DNA from: an uncultured Nitrospinota bacterium
Lineage (GTDB): Bacteria; Nitrospinota; Nitrospinia; UBA9942
Assembly: GCA_964391545.1 (NCBI GenBank)
Contig: CAYMMR010000032.1
Coordinates: forward strand, 1 to 14,649
Reading direction: 5' to 3'
Length of the DNA: 14,649 bases
Shown here: positions 2,343-14,548 of the stretch, piece after piece
Numbering within the stretch: position 1 is the stretch's first letter
How the letters are laid out: every line of letters begins with the position of its first letter
Position numbers and translations under genes: made by a program
Notes under the pieces: model-generated
Seen by the model: only the letters and a program-made list of their open reading frames with translations
Database searches by the model: none
Told to the model about the DNA's origin: nothing

Positions 2343-3554
2343 TTACATCCCCATCTTCTCCCTCGCCTCCTGCAGCACATCTTCCGTTATCTCTTTATAG
2401 CCCTTCTCTACAGCGTAACCGATTATCGCCTTTTTTGCCATATTTCTTACAAAAGGCGGTATCTTCTCGATACGGGACAGCGCCTCTTTTGTCCAGGGCA
2501 ATTCCTGACTTCCGACTTCTGTCTCCTGTCTTCTGTCTTCTTTTAATATATGCTTCTGTGTAACGATAAGAAGATTACAGGACGACTGAATCAGCAGATT
2601 TTCCGTTACGGAGCCCAAGTCAAGCCCGTTATCCGTATGATAACCGACTTTACCTGCTGCTGCCAGAGAAGGATTTTCCTTCTCTATATACTCCAGCACC
2701 TTATCGAACGGCCTGCCCGAAAAAAGGATCGTTTTTATATCCAGCCCCTCTTCTTTTGCAATTTTTTTTGCATTGTCCAGATGCCCCTGATATATCTTCT
2801 CCAGTCCTTTATCGATTATCTCGTCATGCAGCTTCTCCTGCTCTTTAAATTTAAAGAGCTTTCCGGCTTCCTCGGATAGAACCCCTGCAATACTCCTGAA
2901 GGCGACAACATGAAATTGAGGGTCGAATACAGCCACTGCCTCGAGGGGAAGATTAAATGCCTTTGCCAATGCAGCGCATCTTTTAACGGCAGCAAAGGAT
3001 TGGGGGCTTCCGTCAACCGCTACAATAATCTTTCTATCCCACTTTTCGGTTTTTTTTACAACCAGGATGTCGCTTTTAGACCTCCTTGCCACTCTCGATG
3101 TTACGCTTCCTATAAGGCTCCTTTTCAACGCACCAAGACCAAGCAAACCTATTATTACCAAATTGTATCGGCTTTCATTTATATCCTTCACAATCCGGGA
3201 ATAATTTTTGCCTTCCATGGTCTTCCGCTGAAATGCCACTCCGGCGCTCTTGCACATATTCTCGAAATGGTCAAGATATGAATCCGATATTATCTGCAAT
3301 CCCTTCGTTATCAGCGTGTCATGGATTTTTCTTTGACGGTCCAACTCCTCCTCTTCTTGATATTCGGGCGGAAGGCCGCTCTCCATCTGAGAAAATCTCT
3401 GGTCGTGAAGCCTGGCAGCATAAACATGATTTCCAATCAGAGTGGAATTGAATTTTCTTGCCAGAGAAATCCCGACATCTATGGCAAGATTGGAATGCTC
3501 CGAGTTGTCTACAGGGATTAATATGGTTTTAAATTGGCCGTTAAAATCCGACAT
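2343..3554 (-). CDS. Tandem universal stress protein (two UspA domains, both with an ATP-binding G-x2-G-x9-GS motif) fused to a C-terminal PCP_red-like domain.
   Basis: USP1 runs TILIPVDNSEHS...GLLGLGALKRSLIGSVTSRV. USP2 runs KIIVAVDGSPQS...GKVGYHTDNGLDLGSVTENLL. The tail PWTKEALSRIEKIPPFVRNMAKKAIIGYAVEKGYKEITEDVLQEAREK is the same motif as the tail of the neighbouring radical-SAM protein. A strong SD (GAGGAGGAGG) lies 4 nt upstream of the ATG. Confidence 0.85.
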   Translation of the reverse strand: MSDFNGQFKTILIPVDNSEHSNLAIDVGISLARKFNSTLIGNHVYAARLHDQRFSQMESGLPPEYQEEEELDRQRKIHDTLITKGLQIISDSYLDHFENMCKSAGVAFQRKTMEGKNYSRIVKDINESRYNLVIIGLLGLGALKRSLIGSVTSRVARRSKSDILVVKKTEKWDRKIIVAVDGSPQSFAAVKRCAALAKAFNLPLEAVAVFDPQFHVVAFRSIAGVLSEEAGKLFKFKEQEKLHDEIIDKGLEKIYQGHLDNAKKIAKEEGLDIKTILFSGRPFDKVLEYIEKENPSLAAAGKVGYHTDNGLDLGSVTENLLIQSSCNLLIVTQKHILKEDRRQETEVGSQELPWTKEALSRIEKIPPFVRNMAKKAIIGYAVEKGYKEITEDVLQEAREKMGM

Positions 3555-3678: not shown

Positions 3679-4047
3679 TTATTTTTCCCTATTCTTAAAC
3701 ACATCTCTTATCGTATTCCTTAATTCACTCAAGTCGGATGATTTTACCACATAGGCATCGGATGCCCATACCCTGAAATCCTGCTTATAATCGCTGTAGG
3801 CTGTGCACATCACTACAGGTATCTTGGCATCGGTCTCTCTTAATTTCCTTAAAAATTCTATGCCGTCCATCCCCGGCATCTTAACATCGAGCGTAATCAA
3901 ATCCGGATAGGATTCTTTCATTTTAATCATAGCATCTTCGGCATCCGAGGCTGTAATAACCTCATATCCCTCGTCTTCAAGCTCCTCCTTATATAGTATT
4001 CTTATATTCTCCTCATCATCGACTACAAGTATCCTCTTTTTTTCCAT
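3679..4047 (-). CDS. Stand-alone response-regulator receiver domain (CheY-like), cognate partner of the upstream GAF histidine kinase.
   Basis: VVDDEE acid pocket, phospho-acceptor LITLDVKMPGMDG, VMCTAY and YVVKS motifs. The track start MGGIM uses a TTG, so the ATG giving MEKKRILVV at 4045-4047 was chosen. A G-rich SD-like stretch (GGGGGG) lies upstream. Confidence 0.88.
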   Translation of the reverse strand: MEKKRILVVDDEENIRILYKEELEDEGYEVITASDAEDAMIKMKESYPDLITLDVKMPGMDGIEFLRKLRETDAKIPVVMCTAYSDYKQDFRVWASDAYVVKSSDLSELRNTIRDVFKNREK

Positions 4048-4062
4048 AATACCCCCCAAAGA

Positions 4063-4135
4063 TAAGCAATGAGCAATGAGTGCCGAGCAATGAGTCTCAT
4101 TACTCGTTGCTCATTGCTCGTTGCTCATTGCTTTT
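4063..4135. repeat. Roughly 70-bp near-perfect palindrome built from the GCAATGA(G) heptamer. The right arm lies inside the last 11 codons of the histidine kinase.
   Basis: agcaatgagcaatgagtgccgagcaatgagtctcattactcgttgctcattgctcgttgctcattgc. The right arm encodes the repetitive C-terminal tail ...[10 protein letters not shown] of the kinase. Confidence 0.7.
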
Positions 4136-6058
4136 TCTTTGCCTTCTCGGCAGATTAATAATGAATGTGGCGCCTTCGCCGACCCTGTTATTTATCTCTA
4201 TCGTTCCTCCGTGGCTCTCGACTATCTTCCTGCTTAACGAAAGTCCGAGACCCGTCCCGTATTTTTTAGTCGTAAAAAAGGGATTAAATATATTCTCTAA
4301 AATATCGGACGGTATCCCGCCGCCGGTATCGCTTATGCTTATCGTTACACCTTCCTCGCCGCTCAGAGTCTCCGTCTTTATTGACATAACCCCACCCTTC
4401 CCTGTCATAGACTCCACTGCATTATATAAAATATTGGTAATAACCTGCTTTATTTGAGGAGGGTCAATGCTTAAAGGACGAATTGCATCCGACATATATT
4501 TTTTAATTTCTATGCCGCTCTCCCAGAATGTATGCTCATAGAACGACAATAGCTCTTCGATTATGCCGTTTATATCGTTTTCCGAAAAATTAGGCTTTAT
4601 ATCCCTCGAATAGTTGAGTATATCCTTGAGGAGTCTTTCCAGCCCCTCCACCTCGCTGATTATTATGCTTGCATAGCTTTTCTCCTCGGATGTCGGCTCG
4701 TATTTTTCGGAGAGCCTCCTTGCAAATCCGCCGATAGTTACCAGAGGATTTTTTATCTCGTGGGCAAGCTCTGCTGCAAGCTCTCCAAGCGCCGAAAGCC
4801 TCTCCGACTGCACAACCTGCTGCTGCGCGGAGACGATTTCCCTATTCGCCTCCTTTAATTTTGCAAAAAGTTTCGAGTTTTCGATCGCCCATCCTGCATG
4901 AACTGCAAACCTTACGAGTGTCTGAAGGTCTTCATCCATTATGGGCTTGCCGGTATAGATATTATCCACTACTATAACGCCAAGCACATTTTCCTTTGCA
5001 ATAATCGGAACCGTGGCAAAGCTTTTAACCCCGCTCTTATTAATAATATCATGATTCACCCTCCTATCGTTCCATGCATCCTTTATATTGAAAGGCTTCT
5101 TTTCCATGACTGTCAGGGCTATAACCCCGCTCTCCACGGCTATAGGCAGTCTTATCCCTTTTATAAATTTATCATACATGGATTCTTTTTTTGCAGGCGC
5201 CTCCCCCTGAGATATAAGCCATGAAGACAGTTCGGTAATATGCGGCATCCTGCTCCATATCTGCTGCGCCTCTTCCCCAGAATCCGGACCAAGCCCCATC
5301 ATGCCCTGAATAGTGTCTGTCTTCTCATTAACAAGCAAGAGTCCTGCCCTGTTAAATCCGAATGCTCCGCCTGCGGTAACACAGCTTAATATTATCCTCA
5401 GCAATCTATCGAGATTAACGGTAGTCTGCATCGCAATGCTCATCTCATAGAGCATGGACAGCTCCCTCAATCTCTGTGTCGCCTTTTCATAGAGTTGCGC
5501 ATTTTTTATTATCCCGGATACCTGATCCGCTATTGTCGCCAGCAGCTTTATATCGTCCTCCGAATAATCGGTTTCTTTAATATTCTGGGTATATATAACG
5601 CCTATGCAGCAGTTCCTATCCATAATCGGAACCACAAGGACGGATTTAAACCTCTCCTCTTCCGTTACCGGGAAATGAATAAAGCGGGGGTCGCTTGCAG
5701 CATCCTTAAGCGACGCCGCCTTTTTGTTCTGGCATACCCACCCTGAAATCCCTTCGCCCATTCTAAGTATGACCTTGTTGATTGAAGCAGGATTTAAGCC
5801 CCTTGTAGCCTTTAACATAAGATTTTTACCTTCTTCGTCAACGAGGAGTATCGAGCAGGCATCTGCATTGGTATATTTTACGATTACCTCGACAATAGAA
5901 TTGAGCCTGTCTTCCAATTCCAGCGATGAATTGGCAATCCTGCTTACCTCGCTTAAAATCTCGAGCCGGTTGACCCCGCCGATTTTTTGCGCGGCTTTTT
6001 CTACCCTTCTTAAATGAGATTTTGATTTGGCCGGTTTCATATAAAAATATAGGGTCAT
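4100..6058 (-). CDS. Cytoplasmic sensor histidine kinase with GAF-GAF-HisKA-HATPase_c architecture.
   Basis: Two GAF-like blocks (…[13 protein letters not shown]…; …[12 protein letters not shown]…). H-box [21 protein letters not shown] boxes ISDTGGGIP...[20 protein letters not shown]. No TM segments. The track start at 6079 is a TTG inside a palindrome, so the true start is probably ATG 6058 ([10 protein letters not shown]) or 6040 (MKPAKS). Confidence 0.88.
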
Positions 6059-6115
6059 GGGGCAAGGGGCATGGGTCAAGAAAAACCTGACCCTTGCTAC
6101 TTGACCCTTGACCCT
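6051..6115. repeat. Imperfect palindrome of GGGTCA(A/T)GG modules spanning the HK start and the glgA stop.
   Basis: Left arm agggtcatggggcaaggggcatgggtcaag, loop aaaaac, right arm ctgacccttgctacttgacccttgaccct. The right arm encodes the glgA C-terminal residues GSRVK*. The left arm creates the spurious TTG-initiated MTHAPCP extension of the kinase ORF. Confidence 0.65.
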
Positions 6116-7596
6116 TTCTTCTCTATTGCCTTCTTATACAGTTCCAAATACTCCCTCGCAGAATGCCCCCATGAATAGTCCTCTCCCATAGCCTTAACCA
6201 TTAATTCCTTCCAATCGGGATGGACTCCGTAAACATCTACAGCCCTTTTAATCGCAGACAGCAGTTCCTTTGACGAATACTCTTTAAATTTAAACCCGTT
6301 TCCTGTCTTTTTTATAGGGTCGTAATTCTCGATGGTATCGTTCAGCCCTCCTGTTGCCCTCACAACCGGCACGGTTCCATATTTAAGGCTGTAAAGCTGG
6401 TTGAGCCCGCAGGGCTCGTATTTAGAAGGCATGAGAAACATATCCGCCCCCGCCTCGATTTTATGAGCCAGCGCATTATCGAAGCCGATCTTTATCCCTG
6501 CCTTTAACGGATATTTCTTTCCGATATCTTCAAAAATTTTTTGATATTTTTCCTTTCCTGTCCCGAGAAATATAAACTGGAGGTCGAGCCCCATCAGGTC
6601 GGCGATAACCTCCGTTACCAGATCAAACCCTTTCTGCTCATCCAAACGGGAGATAGCGGCTATAACGGGTATCTCTTTGGAGGGTGCGAGCCCGTATATA
6701 TCGAGCAAGTCTTTTTTACATTCCCACTTGCCCGACAGATCGTTTACCGAATATTTTGCGGCTAAATATCCATCTGTTTCAGGATTCCATTCTTCGTAAT
6801 CGATTCCGTTCAGGACGCCGCAAAGGTCGTCCTTTCTCTTTAGCAGGACACCGTCGAGCCCGCGTCCATACTCCTCTGTCTGTATTTCGAGGCTGTAGGT
6901 CTTGCTGACTGCCGTGATAATATCGGAATATAAGATGCCTCCTTTGAGAATATTTATCTTTCCATAAAACTCTATCCCCTCCGGTGTAAATATATCCCAC
7001 CCGAGATTTGTAAGGTGCATATCGAAATGCCAGAACAGCCCCTGATACCCTATATTGTGGACGGTGAAAAGGACTGCAGTATCTTTAAAAAACGGGTCGT
7101 TTTTATACAGCGTCTTCAAATAAACAGGCAGCATGCCCGTCTGCCAGTCATTGCAGTGAATAATATCGGGTTTAAATCCTATCGCCTTGCAGGCTTCAAG
7201 AACCGCCCTCGAAAAATATATAAATCTCTCTGCATTATCCGGATAATCCCCCTGCGGCGTTCCGTATAAATACTCCCTGTCGTAATACTCTTTTTTATCT
7301 ATAAAATATACAGGTATGCCTTTACTTGCCCCTTGCCCCCTGCCCCCTGCCTCTGAATTAATGTATCCTTTATATATCTTTGCCTCCTCGATTCTGTTCG
7401 ATATGGGAACGTTGATATTTTTGCCTGTATACTCAAGCCCGAATTTTTTCTCATCCACTATCTTATACTTCGGCATTATGGCGGCAACATCCTCGCCGAG
7501 TCTTTCGAGCGCCTTTGGCAGGGCGCCGGTTACATCTGCCAGTCCCCCGGTCTTTGCAAAGGGGACTATCTCGGGAGAGGATATAAGTATTTTCAT
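6097..7596 (-). CDS. glgA: Glycogen (starch) synthase, ADP-glucose type, GT5 family.
   Basis: MKILISSPEIVPFAKTGGLADVTGALPKAL has the hallmark KTGGL(A/G)DV N-terminus. Length 499 aa, with GT-B fold motifs throughout (…GFDNALAHKIEAGADMFLMPSKYEPCGLNQLYSLKYGTVPVV…). Confidence 0.93.
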   Translation of the reverse strand: MKILISSPEIVPFAKTGGLADVTGALPKALERLGEDVAAIMPKYKIVDEKKFGLEYTGKNINVPISNRIEEAKIYKGYINSEAGGRGQGASKGIPVYFIDKKEYYDREYLYGTPQGDYPDNAERFIYFSRAVLEACKAIGFKPDIIHCNDWQTGMLPVYLKTLYKNDPFFKDTAVLFTVHNIGYQGLFWHFDMHLTNLGWDIFTPEGIEFYGKINILKGGILYSDIITAVSKTYSLEIQTEEYGRGLDGVLLKRKDDLCGVLNGIDYEEWNPETDGYLAAKYSVNDLSGKWECKKDLLDIYGLAPSKEIPVIAAISRLDEQKGFDLVTEVIADLMGLDLQFIFLGTGKEKYQKIFEDIGKKYPLKAGIKIGFDNALAHKIEAGADMFLMPSKYEPCGLNQLYSLKYGTVPVVRATGGLNDTIENYDPIKKTGNGFKFKEYSSKELLSAIKRAVDVYGVHPDWKELMVKAMGEDYSWGHSAREYLELYKKAIEKKGSRVK

Positions 7597-7601
7597 AAAT
7601 T

Positions 7602-7665
7602 AAGGGGTCAAGGGGTCGAGTGAAAATCTAAACGAACCCTTGAACCCTCGAACCCGCGAACCCTT
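7602..7665. repeat. Imperfect hairpin of GGGGTCAAGG / GAACCC modules between the glgA start and the galT-like stop.
   Basis: aaggggtcaaggggtcgag ... gaacccttgaaccctcgaacccgcgaaccctt. The reverse complement of the right arm matches the left arm in about 15 of 19 positions. Confidence 0.55.
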
Positions 7666-7670
7666 CTCCA

Positions 7671-8669
7671 TCATATCTCCGCTTCTCTCAGATACTTTGC
7701 CGCAATCTCCGGCGGCGTGGGATTTATATAAAATCCCGTCCCCCATTCGAATCCTGCCACCTGCGTCAATTTCGGCATTATCTCTATATGCCAGTGATAA
7801 TACTCATTATGCTGCTCTGCCATCGGCGAGGTATGTATCACCAGATTGTAGGGCGGATGATTAAGGGTCTTTCCGATTCTTAAAAGGGTCTCCTTTAATA
7901 TCCCCGATAAAAATTCGAATTCATGCTTCTGCGAGTCTTCGAAGGAAGAATCATGCGCCTTCGGAAGTATCCATGTCTCGAAGGGAAACCTCGGCGCAAA
8001 GGGCGAAAGGACGATAAAATCCGGATTTTCGCTTATAACACGGGTGCCGTCGGACATCTCCTGCCGTATAATATCGCAGAATACGCATCTCTCCTTAAAT
8101 TTGTAGTGATTGAGAGAGCCGTCCAGTTCTTCGCCGACCAGCTTCGGTATGATAGGCAGCGCAATAAGCTGGGAATGCGTATGCTCGAGGGATGCGCCTG
8201 CCTCCTGTCCGTGGTTTTTAAATATAAGTATGTATTTAAACCTCTTATCTTTTCTTAAATCCATGACCCTGTCCCTGAATGCCCAGAATATATCCTCTAT
8301 CCCTCTTTCCGACATGCTCTCCAATGTGGCTTTATGGTCGGGGGTCTCTATTATTACTTCATGCGCGCCTATGCCGTTCATCTTATCGAATATGCCTTCT
8401 CCAACCTTATCGAGCCCCCCCTCTATCTGAAGCGCCGGAAATTTATTCGGCACAACCCTAAGCTTCCAGCCGCTCTTATTGGAAGAGGAGCCGTCGGAGC
8501 GGTAGGCAAGAACCTCGGGCGGCGTTTTGTCCTCGTTGCCGAAACAAAAAGGGCAGAATCTGTTGTTTTCTTTAGGCGGCGGCACTGTAAAATCGGTAGG
8601 CCTCTTGCCTCTATCCGTAGATATTATAACCCACCTTCCAACGATAGGGTCTTTTCTAAGCTCTGGCAT
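7671..8669 (-). CDS. GalT-family (HIT superfamily branch III) hexose-1-phosphate nucleotidyltransferase / NDP-glucose phosphorylase.
   Basis: Alignable by eye to E. coli GalT: CPFCFGNE Zn motif (CFLCAGN), HEVIIETPDH (RVICFSPDH), FKNHGQEAGASLEHTHSQL with the HxHxQ active site (HPHGQ), FETWILPKAH (FETLLLPKAH), HWHIEIMP. AAGGAG SD 6 nt upstream of the ATG. Confidence 0.88.
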   Translation of the reverse strand: MPELRKDPIVGRWVIISTDRGKRPTDFTVPPPKENNRFCPFCFGNEDKTPPEVLAYRSDGSSSNKSGWKLRVVPNKFPALQIEGGLDKVGEGIFDKMNGIGAHEVIIETPDHKATLESMSERGIEDIFWAFRDRVMDLRKDKRFKYILIFKNHGQEAGASLEHTHSQLIALPIIPKLVGEELDGSLNHYKFKERCVFCDIIRQEMSDGTRVISENPDFIVLSPFAPRFPFETWILPKAHDSSFEDSQKHEFEFLSGILKETLLRIGKTLNHPPYNLVIHTSPMAEQHNEYYHWHIEIMPKLTQVAGFEWGTGFYINPTPPEIAAKYLREAEI

Positions 8670-8717
8670 ATAAGTCTCCTTATTTAAAGATTACCTGACT
8701 ACCATTCACGAATAATA

Positions 8718-8736: not shown

Positions 8737-8757
8737 AAAATGAAGTCTTAATGCAAT

Positions 8758-8823
8758 AATAGTTAAGTTGTTGAGTGGTTGAGTTGTTAAACTACTCAAC
8801 TACTTAACAACTCAACTATTTAA
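8758..8823. repeat. Imperfect palindrome of GTTGAGT / ACTCAAC modules upstream of the PAS histidine kinase.
   Basis: atagttaagttgttgagtggttgagttgtt aaa ctactcaactacttaacaactcaactattt. Confidence 0.6.
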
Positions 8824-8835
8824 ACCCACTAATCG

Positions 8836-10356
8836 ATGAAAAAGGCGAAGGAATTAAAAATCTTAACGGACAAATTAGACCGGTCTTTAAAAGAGATAGC
8901 GGGACTAAAGACAAAGCTGGAGGAGTCCGAAAGGAGGTACTATGACCTCTATGAAAATGCGCCGGATATGTATCATACAATAAATACTAAAGGCATAATA
9001 ATTGACTGCAATAAAACAGAGGCAGAGGCATTGGGATATTCGAAGGAAGAGCTCATAGGACGGTCCGTGCTGAATATTCAGACGGAAGAATCTAAAAAAA
9101 TAGGAAAGGCCGCCATGAAAAAACTCTTTTACGCCGGAAAGGTAAAGGGGCTCGAACTCCAGTTTATAAAGAAAAACGGCGAGGTAATGGATGTCAGCAT
9201 AAACGCCACTGTTATATACGATAAAAACGGAAAACCTGCCGGCACAAGATCGGTAATCAGGGATATTACAAAGAAAAAGAGGATGGTGGAAATAATTAAA
9301 AACTCCAGACGCGAACTGCAGGCAACAATAGACGCCATAACGGATGGAATATGCCTGCTGGATAGGGCGTTTAGAATAGAACGGATAAATAAAAGCATGG
9401 CGGGGCTTTTCGGCAAATCACCCGTAGAGTTTATCGGCAAAAAATGCTATACTGTTTTCGAAAACAGGGAAAAGGTATGCGAGGGGTGCAAAATTATGGG
9501 AACATTTACCTCCGGAGAACCTGTGATTTATAACGATATTAAAAATATCGGCTACGGCACATCGCTCGAAGTTGAAATATCGGTATTCCCCGTTAAAGGC
9601 AATAAAAAAAAGGTGGAACAGGTGGTCTATTATATGAAAGATATAACGGAAAAGAGGAGGCTGGAGAGAGAGCTTGAGTATTCCAAAATCATGGCTTCGC
9701 TGGGTGAAATGGTAACAGGCGTCGCCCACGAGATAAGAACGCCGCTTCAGAACATACTTACGGGCATAGACCTTTTGGAATCCGAGGCAAAAAAGAAGGA
9801 TTTGAATCTTGAGGTGGCGGAGAATTTGAGAGATTTTGCAATTGATATGAACTATATCGTTCAGGAGCTTTTAGATTTCTCAAAGCCGGTAAAACTCGAA
9901 ATCGAGGAAAGGGATGTAACGGATATTATCGACGAAACGATAAAATATTTCAACCCGCGGATGAAGAAATGTAATATAATCGTATCCAGAAAATACAGCC
10001 GTCCGATAAAAAAGACATCTATAGATGTAAGGAGGATAAGGCATGTCTTCTTAAATATAATCGAGAATTCCATTAATGCCATGCCCGATGGCGGGGAAAT
10101 TACCGTGTCGGCCGAACCGTATTATGATAATAAGGGGGAATTTATCATAATAGTATTTTCCGATACGGGCCGCGGCATAGCCTCAAAAAACATCGGCAAG
10201 GTGTTCAATCCTTTTTTTTCAACGAGGACGGAGGGGATAGGGATGGGGCTTGCAGTGGCAAAAAAATTCATCAAGCTGCACAACGGCGAGATTAACATAA
10301 CCAGTAAAGAAGGGAAGGGATGCGAGGTAACGATATTACTGCCGGTAAAGAAGTAG
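8836..10356 (+). CDS. Cytoplasmic sensor histidine kinase with coiled-coil-PAS-PAS-HisKA-HATPase_c architecture.
   Basis: PAS1 YYDLYENAPDMYHTINTKGIIIDCNKTEAEALGYSKEELIGRSV. PAS2 carries an unusual C-x10-C-x2-C (CYTVFENREKVCEGCKIMG). H-box VTGVAHEIRTPLQNI. G-boxes FSDTGRGIASKNIGKVFNPFFST…GMGLAVAKKFIKLHNGEI. Confidence 0.88.
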   Translation: MKKAKELKILTDKLDRSLKEIAGLKTKLEESERRYYDLYENAPDMYHTINTKGIIIDCNKTEAEALGYSKEELIGRSVLNIQTEESKKIGKAAMKKLFYAGKVKGLELQFIKKNGEVMDVSINATVIYDKNGKPAGTRSVIRDITKKKRMVEIIKNSRRELQATIDAITDGICLLDRAFRIERINKSMAGLFGKSPVEFIGKKCYTVFENREKVCEGCKIMGTFTSGEPVIYNDIKNIGYGTSLEVEISVFPVKGNKKKVEQVVYYMKDITEKRRLERELEYSKIMASLGEMVTGVAHEIRTPLQNILTGIDLLESEAKKKDLNLEVAENLRDFAIDMNYIVQELLDFSKPVKLEIEERDVTDIIDETIKYFNPRMKKCNIIVSRKYSRPIKKTSIDVRRIRHVFLNIIENSINAMPDGGEITVSAEPYYDNKGEFIIIVFSDTGRGIASKNIGKVFNPFFSTRTEGIGMGLAVAKKFIKLHNGEINITSKEGKGCEVTILLPVKK

Positions 10357-10568
10357 TGTCAAAGTGTCAGAGTGTCAAAGTTTTAAACTAATGGATAGTC
10401 CCACAAATAGCTTTACCATAGTTTGTCATTCTCGCGAAAGCGGGAATCCAGTAAAATCAAAGACTGGATTCCGCATCGAGTGCGGAATGACAGTAAAGGA
10501 ACTTTAGAGACACTCTACTAACTATGACACTTTGATACTTTGATACTCTGACACTGCTTTGAGGTTTT
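10356..10568. repeat. Complex nested palindromic element between the HK and RR genes. Outer inverted arms are made of GTGTCAAAG modules. The inner 67-nt core is symmetric and can fold into a four-way junction.
   Basis: Outer left arm 10356-10380 gtgtcaaagtgtcagagtgtcaaag. Outer right arm 10525-10555 tgacactttgatactttgatactctgacac. Inner core 10425-10491 GTCATTC-tCGCgaaaGCGgga-ATCCAG-taaaatcaaaga-CTGGAT-TCCGCAtcgagTGCGGA-ATGAC. Confidence 0.65.
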
Positions 10569-10961
10569 ATGGACAAAGGCTCTATATTAATCGTGGATGA
10601 TGAGGATTTTGCAAAGAGCGGGCTTGCAAAAATTCTTGCGGAAGAGGGGTTTTCCGTTCATACTGCCGATGACGGAAAATCCGCACTGTCGGAAACAAAA
10701 AACAGAAGATTCGATTTGATTATAACCGACATAAAAATGCCTGAACTGGACGGCATAGAGCTTACAAGAAGCCTGAAGAAAAAAAATCCCAACCAGCATA
10801 TTATCGTTATGACCGCATACGGTAATATCGATTCTTATCTCGAGGTAATGAATTTAGGCTCCTTCGATTATATTCATAAGCCCTTCACTGCAAAGGAATT
10901 GCTGAGAATAGTAAACAAGGTATTTGAAGAGATAAAGGAGAAAGAATTTGACACAACATGA
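10569..10961 (+). CDS. Stand-alone response-regulator receiver domain (CheY-like), partner of the PAS histidine kinase.
   Basis: ILIVDDEDF, phospho-acceptor LIITDIKMPELDG, IVMTAYGN and YIHKPF motifs. GAGG SD 6-7 nt upstream. Confidence 0.88.
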   Translation: MDKGSILIVDDEDFAKSGLAKILAEEGFSVHTADDGKSALSETKNRRFDLIITDIKMPELDGIELTRSLKKKNPNQHIIVMTAYGNIDSYLEVMNLGSFDYIHKPFTAKELLRIVNKVFEEIKEKEFDTT

Positions 10962-10965
10962 GTGA

Positions 10966-11031
10966 ATTGATATAGTGTTAAGTAGTCGAGTGGTTAAACA
11001 ACTCAACAACTTAACTAAAATGGAGGTTAAA
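10966..11031. repeat. Imperfect hairpin of GTTAAGT / ACTCAAC modules between the RR stop and the tatA start.
   Basis: gttaagtagtcgagtggtt aaa caactcaacaacttaac. It uses the same module family as 8758-8823. Confidence 0.55.
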
Positions 11032-11250: not shown

Positions 11251-11257
11251 ACTGATA

Positions 11258-11340
11258 ATAGGTAAAGAGGCAAAGAGGTTAAGAGGCTAAAAGGTAAAGG
11301 CAATGCCCCTTGACCTCTTTGCCTTTTAACCTTTTTACCT
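11258..11340. repeat. Imperfect palindrome of AGGNNAAG modules between the convergent tatA and REC-GGDEF genes. Likely bidirectional terminator region.
   Basis: Left modules aggtaaag aggcaaag aggttaag aggctaaa aggtaaagg. Centre caatgcccc. Right arm ttgacctctttgccttttaacctttttacct is the reverse complement of the same modules and is T-rich at its 3' side. Confidence 0.55.
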
Positions 11341-12277
11341 ATTCACCCCTCAAGTCCTTCACATACTTGCTCCCTTTAAGCGATTTGGCATACTTCTTTA
11401 AATCCGCGGCAATGGCGCTTGCCTCTCCGAGGTGGTTTATCTTTCTCTTTTCGTTCGTCACCACTGCGACAGAGATAGTCATAATCGGGAATCTCTCCTT
11501 TTCCCCTTTTCTATTCACTGAATCCATATATCCTCTCACCCTGTCCTCCTCGTCATAAAAGGTGGTTATCAAGAGGTCAAAGTATTTAATAATCTGCCTG
11601 CATGCGCTTTCTACAAGCTCAACCGGCACTATGAATACAAAATCATCGCCGCCTACATGCCCGACAAATGTATCCGGGCAATTTAACTCCCTGACGGCAT
11701 TTGTTACGACACGGGCTGTCATTCTTAGTATCTCGTCGCCCCTGCTAAAACCGTATTTGTCATTATATGGCTTGAAATTATCGAGGTCTATGTAGGCAAG
11801 GGCAAACTTTTTATTCAAATCAACCCTCTTTTGCCCCTCTTTCATAATAGAGTTATTGCCCGGCAGGCGGGTAAGGGGATTGGCATCCAGTTCTCTTGCC
11901 GCTCTTGAAAAAGAAAGAGAAACCCTTAAGGTTAAGTCGTCGGAATTAAGAGGTTTTATAATATAATCGTCTGCCGGAATGGAGTCCCAGACGATTTTAC
12001 CCCGTTCAAATCCGGATGGTATAAGCAGTATCACAGGAAGGTGTCCATATACGGTATCGGACTTTAATTGACGGCAGAGTTCATCCCCTTTTATAGAGGG
12101 CATTTCAATGGCAATTATTATCAAATCCGGAGGCTCGTTGTATATTGCATCGAGCGCATTTTTACTGTCTTCCGTATAATACGCAAGATAGCCCTTTTCC
12201 CCGAGAGTGTTCCGAATAAATTCTGCGGTTCGAGAATCGTCATCTATTATTAAAATTCTCTTTTTACTTTCGGACAT
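11339..12277 (-). CDS. Response regulator with REC plus GGDEF (diguanylate-cyclase) domain. The active-site motif is GGDDF rather than GG(D/E)EF.
   Basis: REC: ILIIDDD, LIIIAIEMPSIKG, IIKPL. GGDEF domain: ALAYIDLDNFKPYNDKYGFSRGDEIL ... TFVGHVGGDDFVFIVP. Confidence 0.88.
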   Translation of the reverse strand: MSESKKRILIIDDDSRTAEFIRNTLGEKGYLAYYTEDSKNALDAIYNEPPDLIIIAIEMPSIKGDELCRQLKSDTVYGHLPVILLIPSGFERGKIVWDSIPADDYIIKPLNSDDLTLRVSLSFSRAARELDANPLTRLPGNNSIMKEGQKRVDLNKKFALAYIDLDNFKPYNDKYGFSRGDEILRMTARVVTNAVRELNCPDTFVGHVGGDDFVFIVPVELVESACRQIIKYFDLLITTFYDEEDRVRGYMDSVNRKGEKERFPIMTISVAVVTNEKRKINHLGEASAIAADLKKYAKSLKGSKYVKDLRGE

Positions 12278-13161: not shown

Positions 13162-13180
13162 TTTATTTATAAAAACACCG

Positions 13181-13314
13181 GAACACGAATTACACTAATA
13201 TACGAATGGCACGAATAAAAAAATCGAAATTGAGGCAATTTTTTAATTTTAATCTTTGATTTTTAATCTTTGATTTTCATTCGTGTAATTCGTCCATTCG
13301 CGCTATTCGTGTTC
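13181..13314. repeat. About 35-bp inverted repeats of ACGAAT(A/G) modules flanking a roughly 60-bp AT-rich spacer with a tandem 13-mer (ttttaatctttga x2).
   Basis: Left arm gaacacgaattacactaatatacgaatggcacgaat. Right arm attcgtgtaattcgtccattcgcgctattcgtgttc, whose reverse complement shares the outer 10 and inner 6 nt with the left arm. Direct repeat at 13246-13271. Confidence 0.55.
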
Positions 13315-13630
13315 ATGTTTTTATTCCCATCTTCTCTCTTATCCGTTTCTCGAATATCTCCTTTATCATCTTCATCACAGGGTCGGAGGAAATCTTTTCA
13401 AACCGCTTCTCCAAATCCCGAAGCTGCTCTTCGGGGGGCTTTTCTGCAACCCCTGTATCGACAGGATGCCCCTCTACCGTTATCTTCGGAATTCCCATGT
13501 TCGAAAGTCGGGATATAAGTGCATCGCTCAATTCAACACCCTCGCCGCAGAGAACCAGCCCCTTTTCATTCAATACGGATTTTGCCAGCTTCATCCCCGG
13601 TTTTGCCAGACTTAAAGGTATCTTTTGCAT
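13313..13630 (-). CDS. Small protein (about 105 aa) resembling the N-terminal DUF3391-type domain that precedes HD-GYP and other c-di-GMP signalling modules.
   Basis: MQKIPLSLAKPGMKLAKSVLNEKGLVLCGEGVELSDALISRLSNMGIPKITVEG fits the L.pGM.la.dv....G.lL...G..L....i.rL...Gi..i.v pattern. The track ORF's first 14 aa (MFFFSLALTLTCFF, TTG start) are translated palindrome. Confidence 0.5.
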   Translation of the reverse strand: MQKIPLSLAKPGMKLAKSVLNEKGLVLCGEGVELSDALISRLSNMGIPKITVEGHPVDTGVAEKPPEEQLRDLEKRFEKISSDPVMKMIKEIFEKRIREKMGIKT

Positions 13631-13638
13631 AAAAAAAC

Positions 13639-13702
13639 AGGTTAAGGTTAAGGCTAAGGAAAAGAAAAACAATCACTCAACCTCAACCTTAACCTCAACC
13701 TT
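13639..13702. repeat. Imperfect hairpin of AGGTTAAGG / CCTCAACCT modules between the small-protein start and the hflC stop.
   Basis: aggttaaggttaaggctaagg - aaaagaaaaacaatcact - caacctcaaccttaacctcaacctt. Confidence 0.6.
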
Positions 13703-14548
13703 TCATTTCATGTATCTCAAAAACTCGGACTCCGGAGATAAAATAACCGTAGTCTTATCTTTCAGGGATTTTTTATACGCATCGAGTGAGCGGGTAAAGG
13801 TATAAAATTCAGGGTCGGACTGGACAGCATCGGCATATATCTTTATCGCAGATGCATCCCCCTCTCCCTTTGTCCTTTGCTCCTCCCTGTATGCCTCTGC
13901 AAGAAGTATTACCTTTTCCCTGTCGGTCTCCGCCCTTATCTTTGTCGCCTCTTCCTGTCCTTCCGAACGATACTGCATTGCAATCCTCTCCCTCTCTGCC
14001 TGCATCCTTCCGTATATCGCCTTGGCGTTCTCATGGGGGAGGTCTGCCCTCTTTATCCTTACATCCCTTACCTCTATCCCGTAGTCGCCAAATTTCTCAT
14101 TTGTCCTTTTTGTTACAGTCTCCATAATGTCTCCCCTTGTCTCCGATAAGACCTCATGAAGGGTGTGCCGCCCCAATTCTATCCTGAGCTCCGAATAAAT
14201 AATATCATCCAATCTTGCCTGCGCCCCTGTCTCATCTTTCACGGTTATCATGAGCTTTAGCGGGTCTATTATCCTCCATTTGGCATAATTATCCACAAGG
14301 AGATTCTTTTTATCCTTAGTCAGTATTTCGGCGGACGCAGCGTCATAATCCAGAAGTCTCTTATCAAAGAAGCGGGTCTCCTGAAGCATTGGTATTCTGA
14401 AATAAAGACCGGGCTCATAGATAGTATCTATCGGCTTGCCGAGCTGCGTCAGGACTACCTGTTCCGTCTGCCTTACAATAAAGAGAGGATTAAGGAACAT
14501 AAAGAAAATCAGTAACGCACCAATGATTATTAATAAAATATTTTTCAT
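13703..14548 (-). CDS. hflC: HflC, the SPFH/band-7 modulator of FtsH protease.
   Basis: N-terminal TM helix (ILLIIIGALLIFFMF). ...IVRQTEQVV.. LGK..., EPGLYFRIP, VRDVRIKRADLP, AIYGRMQAERERIA, SEGQEEA, GEGDA. C-terminal PESEFLRYMK* matches E. coli HflC ...PDSDFFRYMK. AGGAGGG SD upstream. Confidence 0.9.
   Translation of the reverse strand: MKNILLIIIGALLIFFMFLNPLFIVRQTEQVVLTQLGKPIDTIYEPGLYFRIPMLQETRFFDKRLLDYDAASAEILTKDKKNLLVDNYAKWRIIDPLKLMITVKDETGAQARLDDIIYSELRIELGRHTLHEVLSETRGDIMETVTKRTNEKFGDYGIEVRDVRIKRADLPHENAKAIYGRMQAERERIAMQYRSEGQEEATKIRAETDREKVILLAEAYREEQRTKGEGDASAIKIYADAVQSDPEFYTFTRSLDAYKKSLKDKTTVILSPESEFLRYMK

Follow-up and report, generated by a model that had tools for sequence, protein, structure and literature searches.

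What does a gene labelled "galactose-1-phosphate uridylyltransferase" do directly upstream of glgA, the gene for glycogen synthase? The question is raised by a contig of an uncultured Nitrospinota bacterium (CAYMMR010000032.1, assembly GCA_964391545.1), which was analysed over its entire 14,649 nucleotides (nt) and is called the window below. The gene most likely encodes a bacterial relative of the plant ADP-glucose phosphorylase At5g18200. It and glgA both lie on the minus strand, the GalT-like gene upstream and glgA downstream, with the following features:

8676-8681, minus strand: Shine-Dalgarno sequence AAGGAG, read from the sequence, 6 nt before the ATG of the GalT-like gene
7671-8669, minus strand: GalT-like gene, 332 amino acids (aa); At5g18200-type nucleotidyltransferase of the GalT/histidine triad (HIT) fold, putative ADP-glucose:phosphate adenylyltransferase
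7597-7670, minus strand: gap of 74 bp between the two genes, with an imperfect hairpin at 7602-7664 and without a clear Shine-Dalgarno sequence for glgA
6097-7596, minus strand: glgA, 499 aa; GT5 glycogen synthase of the ADP-glucose type with a KTGGL motif

An earlier note on this DNA had placed the GalT-like gene 74 bp upstream of, and co-oriented with, glgA, and had credited it with a CPFC zinc site, an HxHxQ active site and a ribosome-binding site of its own. The coordinates agree with the first point and the sequence with the others, the motifs being C39-P-F-C42 and H163-T-H165-S-Q167. Six close relatives carry (A)GAGGAG(A) at the matching position before the start codon. The closest relatives of the genome are groundwater Nitrospinota metagenome-assembled genomes (MAGs), and in the best of them (L062) the GalT-like protein is 96% identical. 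Pfam finds the N- and C-terminal GalP_UDP_transf domains in the GalT-like protein, and Glyco_transf_5 (283 bits) and GT1 in GlgA, which also scores 570 bits with the model for ADP-glucose-type glycogen synthase, TIGR02095 (cut-off 328).

Assignment to the At5g18200 subfamily

The subfamily of the GalT-like protein was assessed in several ways. A phmmer search of the PDB places At5g18200 (1z84/2h39) at the top, with 269 bits and E = 3.6e-79 over the full length, against 130 bits for the GalT of Pyrobaculum aerophilum (PaGalT), 90 for that of Escherichia coli (EcGalT) and 62 for human GALT. Identity is 42% to At5g18200, 34% to PaGalT and 26% to EcGalT. When 128 diverse relatives were aligned with the reference proteins, 44 columns were conserved in at least 90% of sequences and taken as family-invariant; At5g18200 keeps 41 of these, PaGalT 33 and EcGalT 27. 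Seven columns (E46, R71, H103, R134, A225, W293 and N316) are common only to the GalT-like protein and At5g18200. The earlier note had proposed a phylogeny as a check, and in a neighbour-joining tree the window protein and At5g18200 indeed share one clade with both GalTs outside it.

The functional sites tell the same story at the level of single residues. His165 aligns with His186 of At5g18200 and His166 of EcGalT, the nucleophile position. The first zinc site, C39/C42/H112/H163, corresponds column for column to C63/C66/H133/H184 in the plant protein, and the second metal site, C195/C198/H239/H292, to C216/C219/H255/H310; the second CxxC is absent in EcGalT. Towards the C-terminus the GalT-like protein has a 7-residue gap at positions ~308-314 of EcGalT, which we take to be part of the hexose-binding loop (K311-Q323), and Q323 is not conserved. 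As in At5g18200, a GFExGxGxxxN segment replaces the C-terminal loop of the E. coli enzyme.

Structure prediction points in the same direction. The AlphaFold2 model used here was built from 123 diverse sequences and has a mean predicted local distance difference test (pLDDT) score of 96.3, as against 63 with a shallow alignment of sequences at 67-74% identity. Its best match among known structures is 1z84 (E = 1.4e-37, template modelling (TM) score 0.86/0.91, root mean square deviation 2.6 Å), and 1z84/2h39 lie ten orders of magnitude ahead of the GalTs.

The GalT-like protein does pass the galT model TIGR00209, with 119 bits against a cut-off of 102. However, At5g18200 passes it too, with 107.6 bits, and is reported, at least in the account given by PMC6329318, to be a functional ADP-glucose phosphorylase and not a GALT (McCoy 2006), so that the galT label is uninformative. 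The score with NF008724, 138 bits, falls short of the cut-off of 448. The bit scores, the 41 of 44 columns and the model thus support the suggestion in the earlier note that the protein is of the At5g18200, or ADP-glucose phosphorylase, type and not a Leloir GalT; by homology, its substrates would be ADP-glucose and inorganic phosphate (Pi) and its reaction ADP-glucose + Pi <-> glucose-1-phosphate (G1P) + ADP.

Membership of the diadenosine tetraphosphate (Ap4A) phosphorylases was also considered and rejected: Pfam Ap4A_phos_N gives 20.9 bits against a cut-off of 23.1, and Apa2 structures match with TM scores of only ~0.4. The family is large, with 8,650 representatives at 50% clustering, and the named members among those examined are labelled galT in public records. 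One representative, a transcript of the euglenid Eutreptiella gymnastica (P0129, 871 aa), carries two tandem GalT-like units in a single chain.

Association with glgA and other partners

Gene order was compared across 80 loci from species-representative genomes, with GalT-like proteins at 63-96% identity, 76 of them with enough downstream sequence to be informative. In 65 of the 76, glgA lies directly downstream on the same strand, at gaps of 0-317 nt. The GalT-like and glgA alignments abut or are at most 3 nt apart in about 30 loci, and in one (L014) the stop and start overlap by 4 nt, as checked by open reading frame (ORF) coordinates. The pair is found in Nitrospinota, in many Nitrospirota lineages and in one Zixibacteria MAG; this adjacency is far beyond chance. 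The exceptions are two Nitrospirota loci and the loci from Acidobacteria, Acidiferrales and Binatia; among the latter, several were inspected and proved to have unrelated neighbours. Five representatives of the 50% clusters extend the comparison to more distant members: in two, P0136 (48% identity) and P0253 (39%), only 4 nt separate the gene from a Glyco_transf_5 gene on its downstream side, P0167 (44%) is followed by a partial GlgA N-terminus, one has no glycogen neighbour and one lies on too short a contig.

The earlier note had seen no glgC, galK or galE beside the pair. With the E. coli proteins as tblastn queries, no homologue of GlgC, GlgB, GlgP, GlgX, GalK, GalE or GalM was found in the window, nor did the same queries produce a match in the 80 related loci, each spanning at most 21 kb; GlgC in particular is not found within 10 kb in any of them.

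The strongest evidence for the link is gene fusion. In an 814-aa protein (P0150; contigs L083 and L084) a complete GlgA is fused to a GalT-like domain that is 48% identical to the window protein, and at least nine full-length copies occur in independent JGI, NCBI, ENA and Logan assemblies, two of them labelled Coprothermobacterota. A second type joins a GH57 domain to the GalT-like unit in four members of 840-872 aa (for example P0183, 858 aa; L085-L087). Every catalytic and subfamily-specific residue is retained in both types. The Coprothermobacterota fusion contig also bears a sugar-1-phosphate nucleotidyltransferase fused to a phosphohexomutase, beside a GH57 branching enzyme. Conserved order, overlapping stop and start codons and these Rosetta-stone fusions support a functional tie between the GalT-like protein and GlgA, in line with the partnership envisaged in the earlier note.

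A third kind of partner appears in Streptomyces, where three plasmid matches (H2-H4) have a glycosyltransferase directly upstream of the family member. Two of these glycosyltransferases were inspected; one belongs to the TreT family by Pfam, and the other is a homologue with 76% identity to it:

L096 6498-9089 (Streptomyces sp. F2 pFRL4): TreT-family glycosyltransferase with C-terminal YHS, and GalT-like gene
L098 2521-4999 (S. mirabilis pI): TreT-family glycosyltransferase with C-terminal YHS, and GalT-like gene

The TreT reaction, ADP-glucose + glucose <-> trehalose + ADP, is reversible (PMC1769515). Since TreT adjoins a family member in these plasmids, the partnership would be with ADP-glucose enzymes generally and not with GlgA only; homology and the three kinds of partner all suggest ADP-glucose as the common metabolite. 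Many genes for stress and heavy-metal functions (Usp, PspA, HtpX, FtsH, MerA and a P-type ATPase) lie in the plasmid region.

In two unrelated lineages a further gene lies directly upstream of the pair, encoding NTP_transf_4 and hexapeptide-repeat domains: at 8756-9838 of the Zixibacteria locus (L072) and on the 70.7-kb JGI contig of P0253. The two-part architecture is that of GlgC, and the gene might be an unrecognised glucose-1-phosphate nucleotidyltransferase. Its identification as GlgC itself is not supported for Zixibacteria, where the copy matches TIGR03991, "alternative GlmU", a hypothetical equivalog whose family function is itself only predicted.

Direction of flux and alternative readings

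As an adenylyltransferase of the plant type, the GalT-like enzyme would interconvert ADP-glucose + Pi and G1P + ADP through an adenylyl-His165 intermediate, and would be the partner of an ADP-glucose-dependent glycosyltransferase, here GlgA. Because the two enzymes would use the ADP/ADP-glucose pair in opposite senses, ADP would act catalytically, and by stoichiometry the coupled sum, G1P + glucan(n) <-> glucan(n+1) + Pi, equals the glucan phosphorylase reaction. The textbook equilibrium of that reaction lies at a Pi/G1P ratio of ~3.6, so net synthesis would need a G1P/Pi ratio above ~0.3, which is unusual in cells. Cellular Pi is normally in large excess over G1P, and for this reason net flux through the GalT-like enzyme should go from ADP-glucose to G1P + ADP. 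The earlier note had suggested that the enzyme could supply ADP-glucose from ADP and so save ATP; as stated this is not supported, the net reaction being the normally uphill direction of the glucan phosphorylase equilibrium. Feeding of GlgA from ADP + G1P would be possible only at unusually high G1P/Pi.

At the synthase, such an enzyme would form a near-equilibrium shuttle between ADP-glucose and G1P, acting as an energy-conserving drain, brake or overflow valve of the ADP-glucose pool. With GlgA or TreT running in reverse, it would instead offer an ATP-independent phosphorolytic exit from glucan or glucoside. The plant enzyme has a Km for ADP-glucose of ~7 µM and is described as phosphorolytic (PMC4136846), and this low Km, if carried over to the bacterial protein, would fit the scavenging of small ADP-glucose pools. 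For Nitrospinota a single annotation has been published, that of Nitrospina gracilis, and it lists a canonical glgC elsewhere in the genome together with glgA and at least two glgP entries (PMC3578206 supplement). This glgC, the nucleotidyltransferase-phosphohexomutase fusion of Coprothermobacterota and the upstream NTP_transf_4 gene in two lineages suggest that the GalT-like enzyme coexists with an ATP-driven supplier of ADP-glucose. Given these signs and the normally uphill course of ATP-saving supply, a drain or shuttle is favoured. GlgC and the GalT-like enzyme would sum to ATP + Pi -> ADP + pyrophosphate (PPi). Among the findings that the earlier note had named as telling against it, a canonical glgC elsewhere may exist, to judge from N. 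gracilis; clustering with the Leloir GalTs alongside galK and galE is clearly not what was found.

Comparison with known systems helps to define the proposal. At5g18200 (1z84, 1zwj, 2h39) is a full-length homologue with the same nucleophile position, both CxxC sites, the seven subfamily residues and the best structural match; in contrast to the operon-like and elsewhere fused bacterial gene, the plant enzyme is cytosolic and monocistronic. We know of no physiological partner for it. The Leloir GalTs (E. coli 1hxp, human GALT, P. aerophilum 6k5z) share the two-lobed HIT-like fold, the first zinc site, HxHxQ and the match to TIGR00209, but stand at only 26-34% identity; the GalT-like protein also has the 7-residue gap relative to EcGalT, falls below the NF008724 cut-off and has no galK, galE or galM neighbours by tblastn. 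The glgC-glgA arrangement of the glgBXCAP operon is similar in that an enzyme acting on ADP-glucose (here putatively) precedes the gene of a GT5 ADP-glucose-type synthase, with stop and start often overlapping. Here, however, a putative HIT-fold phosphorylase takes the place of GlgC, and a two-component system follows instead of glgP. Since it would use ADP/Pi and not ATP/PPi as GlgC does, the GalT-like enzyme could not alone drive synthesis. The summed reaction, glucan + Pi <-> G1P, would by stoichiometry be identical to that of GlgP/MalP, although reached by two unrelated enzymes and catalytic ADP, without pyridoxal phosphate. The E. coli ADP-sugar pyrophosphatase AspP (NudF) is reported to restrain glycogen synthesis by hydrolysing ADP-glucose; the GalT-like enzyme would likewise lower the pool available to GlgA, but AspP wastes the bond, yielding AMP + G1P, while the phosphorylase would conserve it as ADP and be reversible. 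TreT, like GlgA a reversible ADP-glucose-dependent glycosyltransferase, lies directly beside the family member in the Streptomyces plasmids but is not present in this window.

The best explanation, in which our confidence is evenly poised, is that the gene is an orthologue of At5g18200 which partners an ADP-glucose glycosyltransferase in a shuttle that would mostly drain ADP-glucose or mobilise glucan. Several points weigh against this. The 42% identity to a single characterised enzyme does not settle nucleotide or acceptor specificity. A gene in the slot of glgC, and fused elsewhere to GlgA, bears the usual signature of a substrate supplier and not of a remover, and tblastn detects no glgC within 10 kb in the 80 loci. 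A second phosphorolytic route looks redundant given glucan phosphorylases such as the glgP products of N. gracilis, reverse flux through GlgA would be thermodynamically small, and the copies in Acidobacteria and Acetoanaerobium are without glycogen neighbours. Some of these points speak for a supply of ADP-glucose independent of GlgC, in which ADP + G1P -> ADP-glucose + Pi feeds GlgA, recycles its ADP and makes glycogen without ATP cost. The position upstream of glgA, often overlapping, the suitability of a fusion for consecutive enzymes, the missing glgC nearby and the energy-limited lifestyles of the carriers would all fit, and pairing with TreT would similarly give ATP-free trehalose synthesis. 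Yet the coupled sum amounts to reversed glucan phosphorylase, which at ordinary levels of Pi and G1P is uphill by several kJ/mol. In addition, a canonical glgC is present in N. gracilis, two lineages carry another nucleotidyltransferase-like gene immediately upstream of the pair, and the Coprothermobacterota fusion contig has a sugar-1-phosphate nucleotidyltransferase as well. We consider GlgC-independent supply a secondary reading, less likely than the shuttle but of substantial weight.

A different chemistry on the same fold is somewhat less likely again, though it too keeps substantial weight. The acceptor might be PPi, giving the GlgC-like reaction ATP + G1P <-> ADP-glucose + PPi, or the substrate another NDP-glucose or sugar-1-phosphate. 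Only one family member has been assayed, and a reaction linked to PPi would bring thermodynamics into line with the glgC-like place in the operon. Precedent exists in the HIT branch, where the adenylyl-enzymes of Ap4A and adenylyl sulfate (APS) phosphorylases accept varied phosphates. On the other hand, the 41 of 44 invariant residues held in common with an ADP-glucose phosphorylase include all the At-type-specific ones, and both GlgA and TreT, its partners, act on ADP-glucose. That the gene encodes a Leloir galactose-1-phosphate uridylyltransferase which lies beside glgA by chance is very improbable. The galT labels in public records and the score above the TIGR00209 cut-off speak for it, but that model does not discriminate; the NF008724 cut-off is far from reached, the 7-residue gap and unconserved Q323 fall in the presumed hexose-binding loop, and tblastn finds no galK, galE or galM in the 80 loci. 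The context of a true GalT also differs, as in Thermus pTT27, where galT (28% identical) adjoins a GH36 glycosidase. Least probable of all is the absence of any functional link, the adjacency being an accident of gene order inherited in one lineage. The unrelated neighbours in Acidobacteria, Binatia and Acetoanaerobium and the two Nitrospirota loci lacking glgA would suit it, but the pair recurs in separate phyla, at 39-89% identity and in otherwise different contexts, and the recurrent, independent gene fusions effectively refute it.

Accounts of glycogen metabolism in bacteria usually centre on GlgC, GlgA, GlgB, GlgP and GlgX, or on GlgE. Reports of ADP-glucose phosphorylase activity go back to the 1960s, and in 2006 the activity was reportedly assigned to At5g18200; we know of no physiological role or partner established for it. 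The literature searched yielded no description of a bacterial ADP-glucose phosphorylase or of a galT-glgA link. A comprehensive 2024 review on prokaryotic alpha-glucan enzymes makes no mention, in the parts covered, of GalT, histidine triad or ADP-glucose phosphorylase. Elsewhere the last of these names is at times a slip for GlgC and at others denotes the plant At5g18200 enzyme. The module exemplified by the window thus appears to represent a variant of glycogen metabolism not yet described, although nothing is unique to this window, its locus being one of many similar public loci.

A bolder generalisation, which we put forward as speculative and doubtful, is of a widespread, unrecognised module in which a HIT-fold ADP-glucose phosphorylase and GlgA or TreT would interconvert G1P and storage alpha-glucosides without ATP and with ADP as catalyst. 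If this is true, genomes lacking glgC would depend on the module alone for ADP-glucose, a GAF histidine kinase and a CheY-like regulator dedicated to it would govern it in Nitrospinota and Nitrospirota, and a long-orphan plant enzyme would gain a physiological rationale. The pair of enzymes could show how bacteria under energy limitation adjust or avoid the ATP spent on glycogen. The likely mis-annotation as galT, for its part, would inflate the galactose metabolism predicted from metagenomes.

Downstream genes and intergenic hairpins

The conserved unit is larger than the pair described in the earlier note, as two genes for signalling proteins follow glgA:

4100-6079, minus strand: third gene, ORF of 659 aa, histidine kinase with GAF-GAF-HisKA-HATPase domains by Pfam; likely start ATG 6040
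3679-4059, minus strand: fourth gene, single-domain CheY-like response regulator with a receiver (REC) domain only, all NCBIfam matches being to the receiver alone
6044-6113, minus strand: terminator-like hairpin overlapping the last glgA codons, then a U-rich run, directly before the likely kinase start

The GAF histidine kinase shows no detectable transmembrane or signal domain. At least 33 loci of Nitrospinota and Nitrospirota preserve the order GalT-like gene, glgA, GAF kinase and regulator, and kinase and regulator may have a role in the function of the pair. In two Nitrospirota loci (L054 10001-14554 and L067 3633-8222) the GalT-like gene is followed directly by a GAF/PAS histidine kinase and a single-domain regulator without glgA, so the link to the two-component system may be independent of glgA.

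In close Nitrospinota relatives the four-gene core and a Usp gene are constant and the upstream blocks variable. A PAS histidine kinase and response regulator block at 8836-10961 is flanked by inverted repeats of 40 nt with 88% complementarity (8770-8809 and 10976-11015). This block is absent from one relative (L003), and a neighbouring HDOD/RR-GGDEF block from three others (L001, L002 and L004). Both look like cassette-like insertions or deletions beside a constant core.

Nearly every intergenic region of the window contains a hairpin whose arms consist of tandem 7-8-nt units, with a different unit at each site:

636-695: intergenic hairpin
4059-4145: intergenic hairpin
6044-6113: intergenic hairpin, the terminator-like one listed above
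7602-7664: intergenic hairpin, in the gap between the GalT-like gene and glgA
8760-8823: intergenic hairpin
10363-10555: intergenic hairpin
10963-11017: intergenic hairpin
11257-11343: intergenic hairpin
13173-13322: intergenic hairpin
13628-13712: intergenic hairpin

RNA folding gives the hairpin in the gap -26 kcal/mol, with z = -0.25 relative to shuffled sequences, and the one at 6044-6113 -42.8 kcal/mol, with z = -6.1 and none of 200 shuffles as stable. Five of the seven close relatives have a hairpin between the GalT-like gene and glgA, with unrelated arm sequences; the other two have a gap of 13-19 nt and no hairpin. A specific attenuator in the gap was considered and rejected: shuffles are equally stable, the sequence is unconserved and similar hairpins occur in nearly all intergenic regions. 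The palindrome mentioned in the earlier note is one instance of a type found throughout the contig and no dedicated regulatory element. The structure of these hairpins looks conserved and their sequence free; they may serve as terminators or RNA-stability devices specific to the lineage, or result from a hairpin-generating repeat process.

Repeats of this kind may be compared with an in-frame, low-complexity insertion in glgA itself, GGRGQGASK at aa 86-94 (window ~7315-7341), the DNA of which, ccttgccccctgccccctgcc, resembles the intergenic repeat units. In the alignment each close relative has its own length and sequence of this segment, which GlgA of Nitrospirota and E. coli lacks.

Two minor observations concern other genes and a database. 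An AhbD-like radical SAM/SPASM enzyme (768-2180) and a tandem-Usp protein (2343-3554) are adjacent and otherwise unrelated, and both end in PCP_red, the C-terminal domain of protochlorophyllide reductase subunit B. In PLSDB, whole chromosomes are filed as plasmids and nearly unannotated, among them NZ_CP154629.1 (2.63 Mb, Acetoanaerobium) and several E. coli/Klebsiella entries of 4.8-5.4 Mb.

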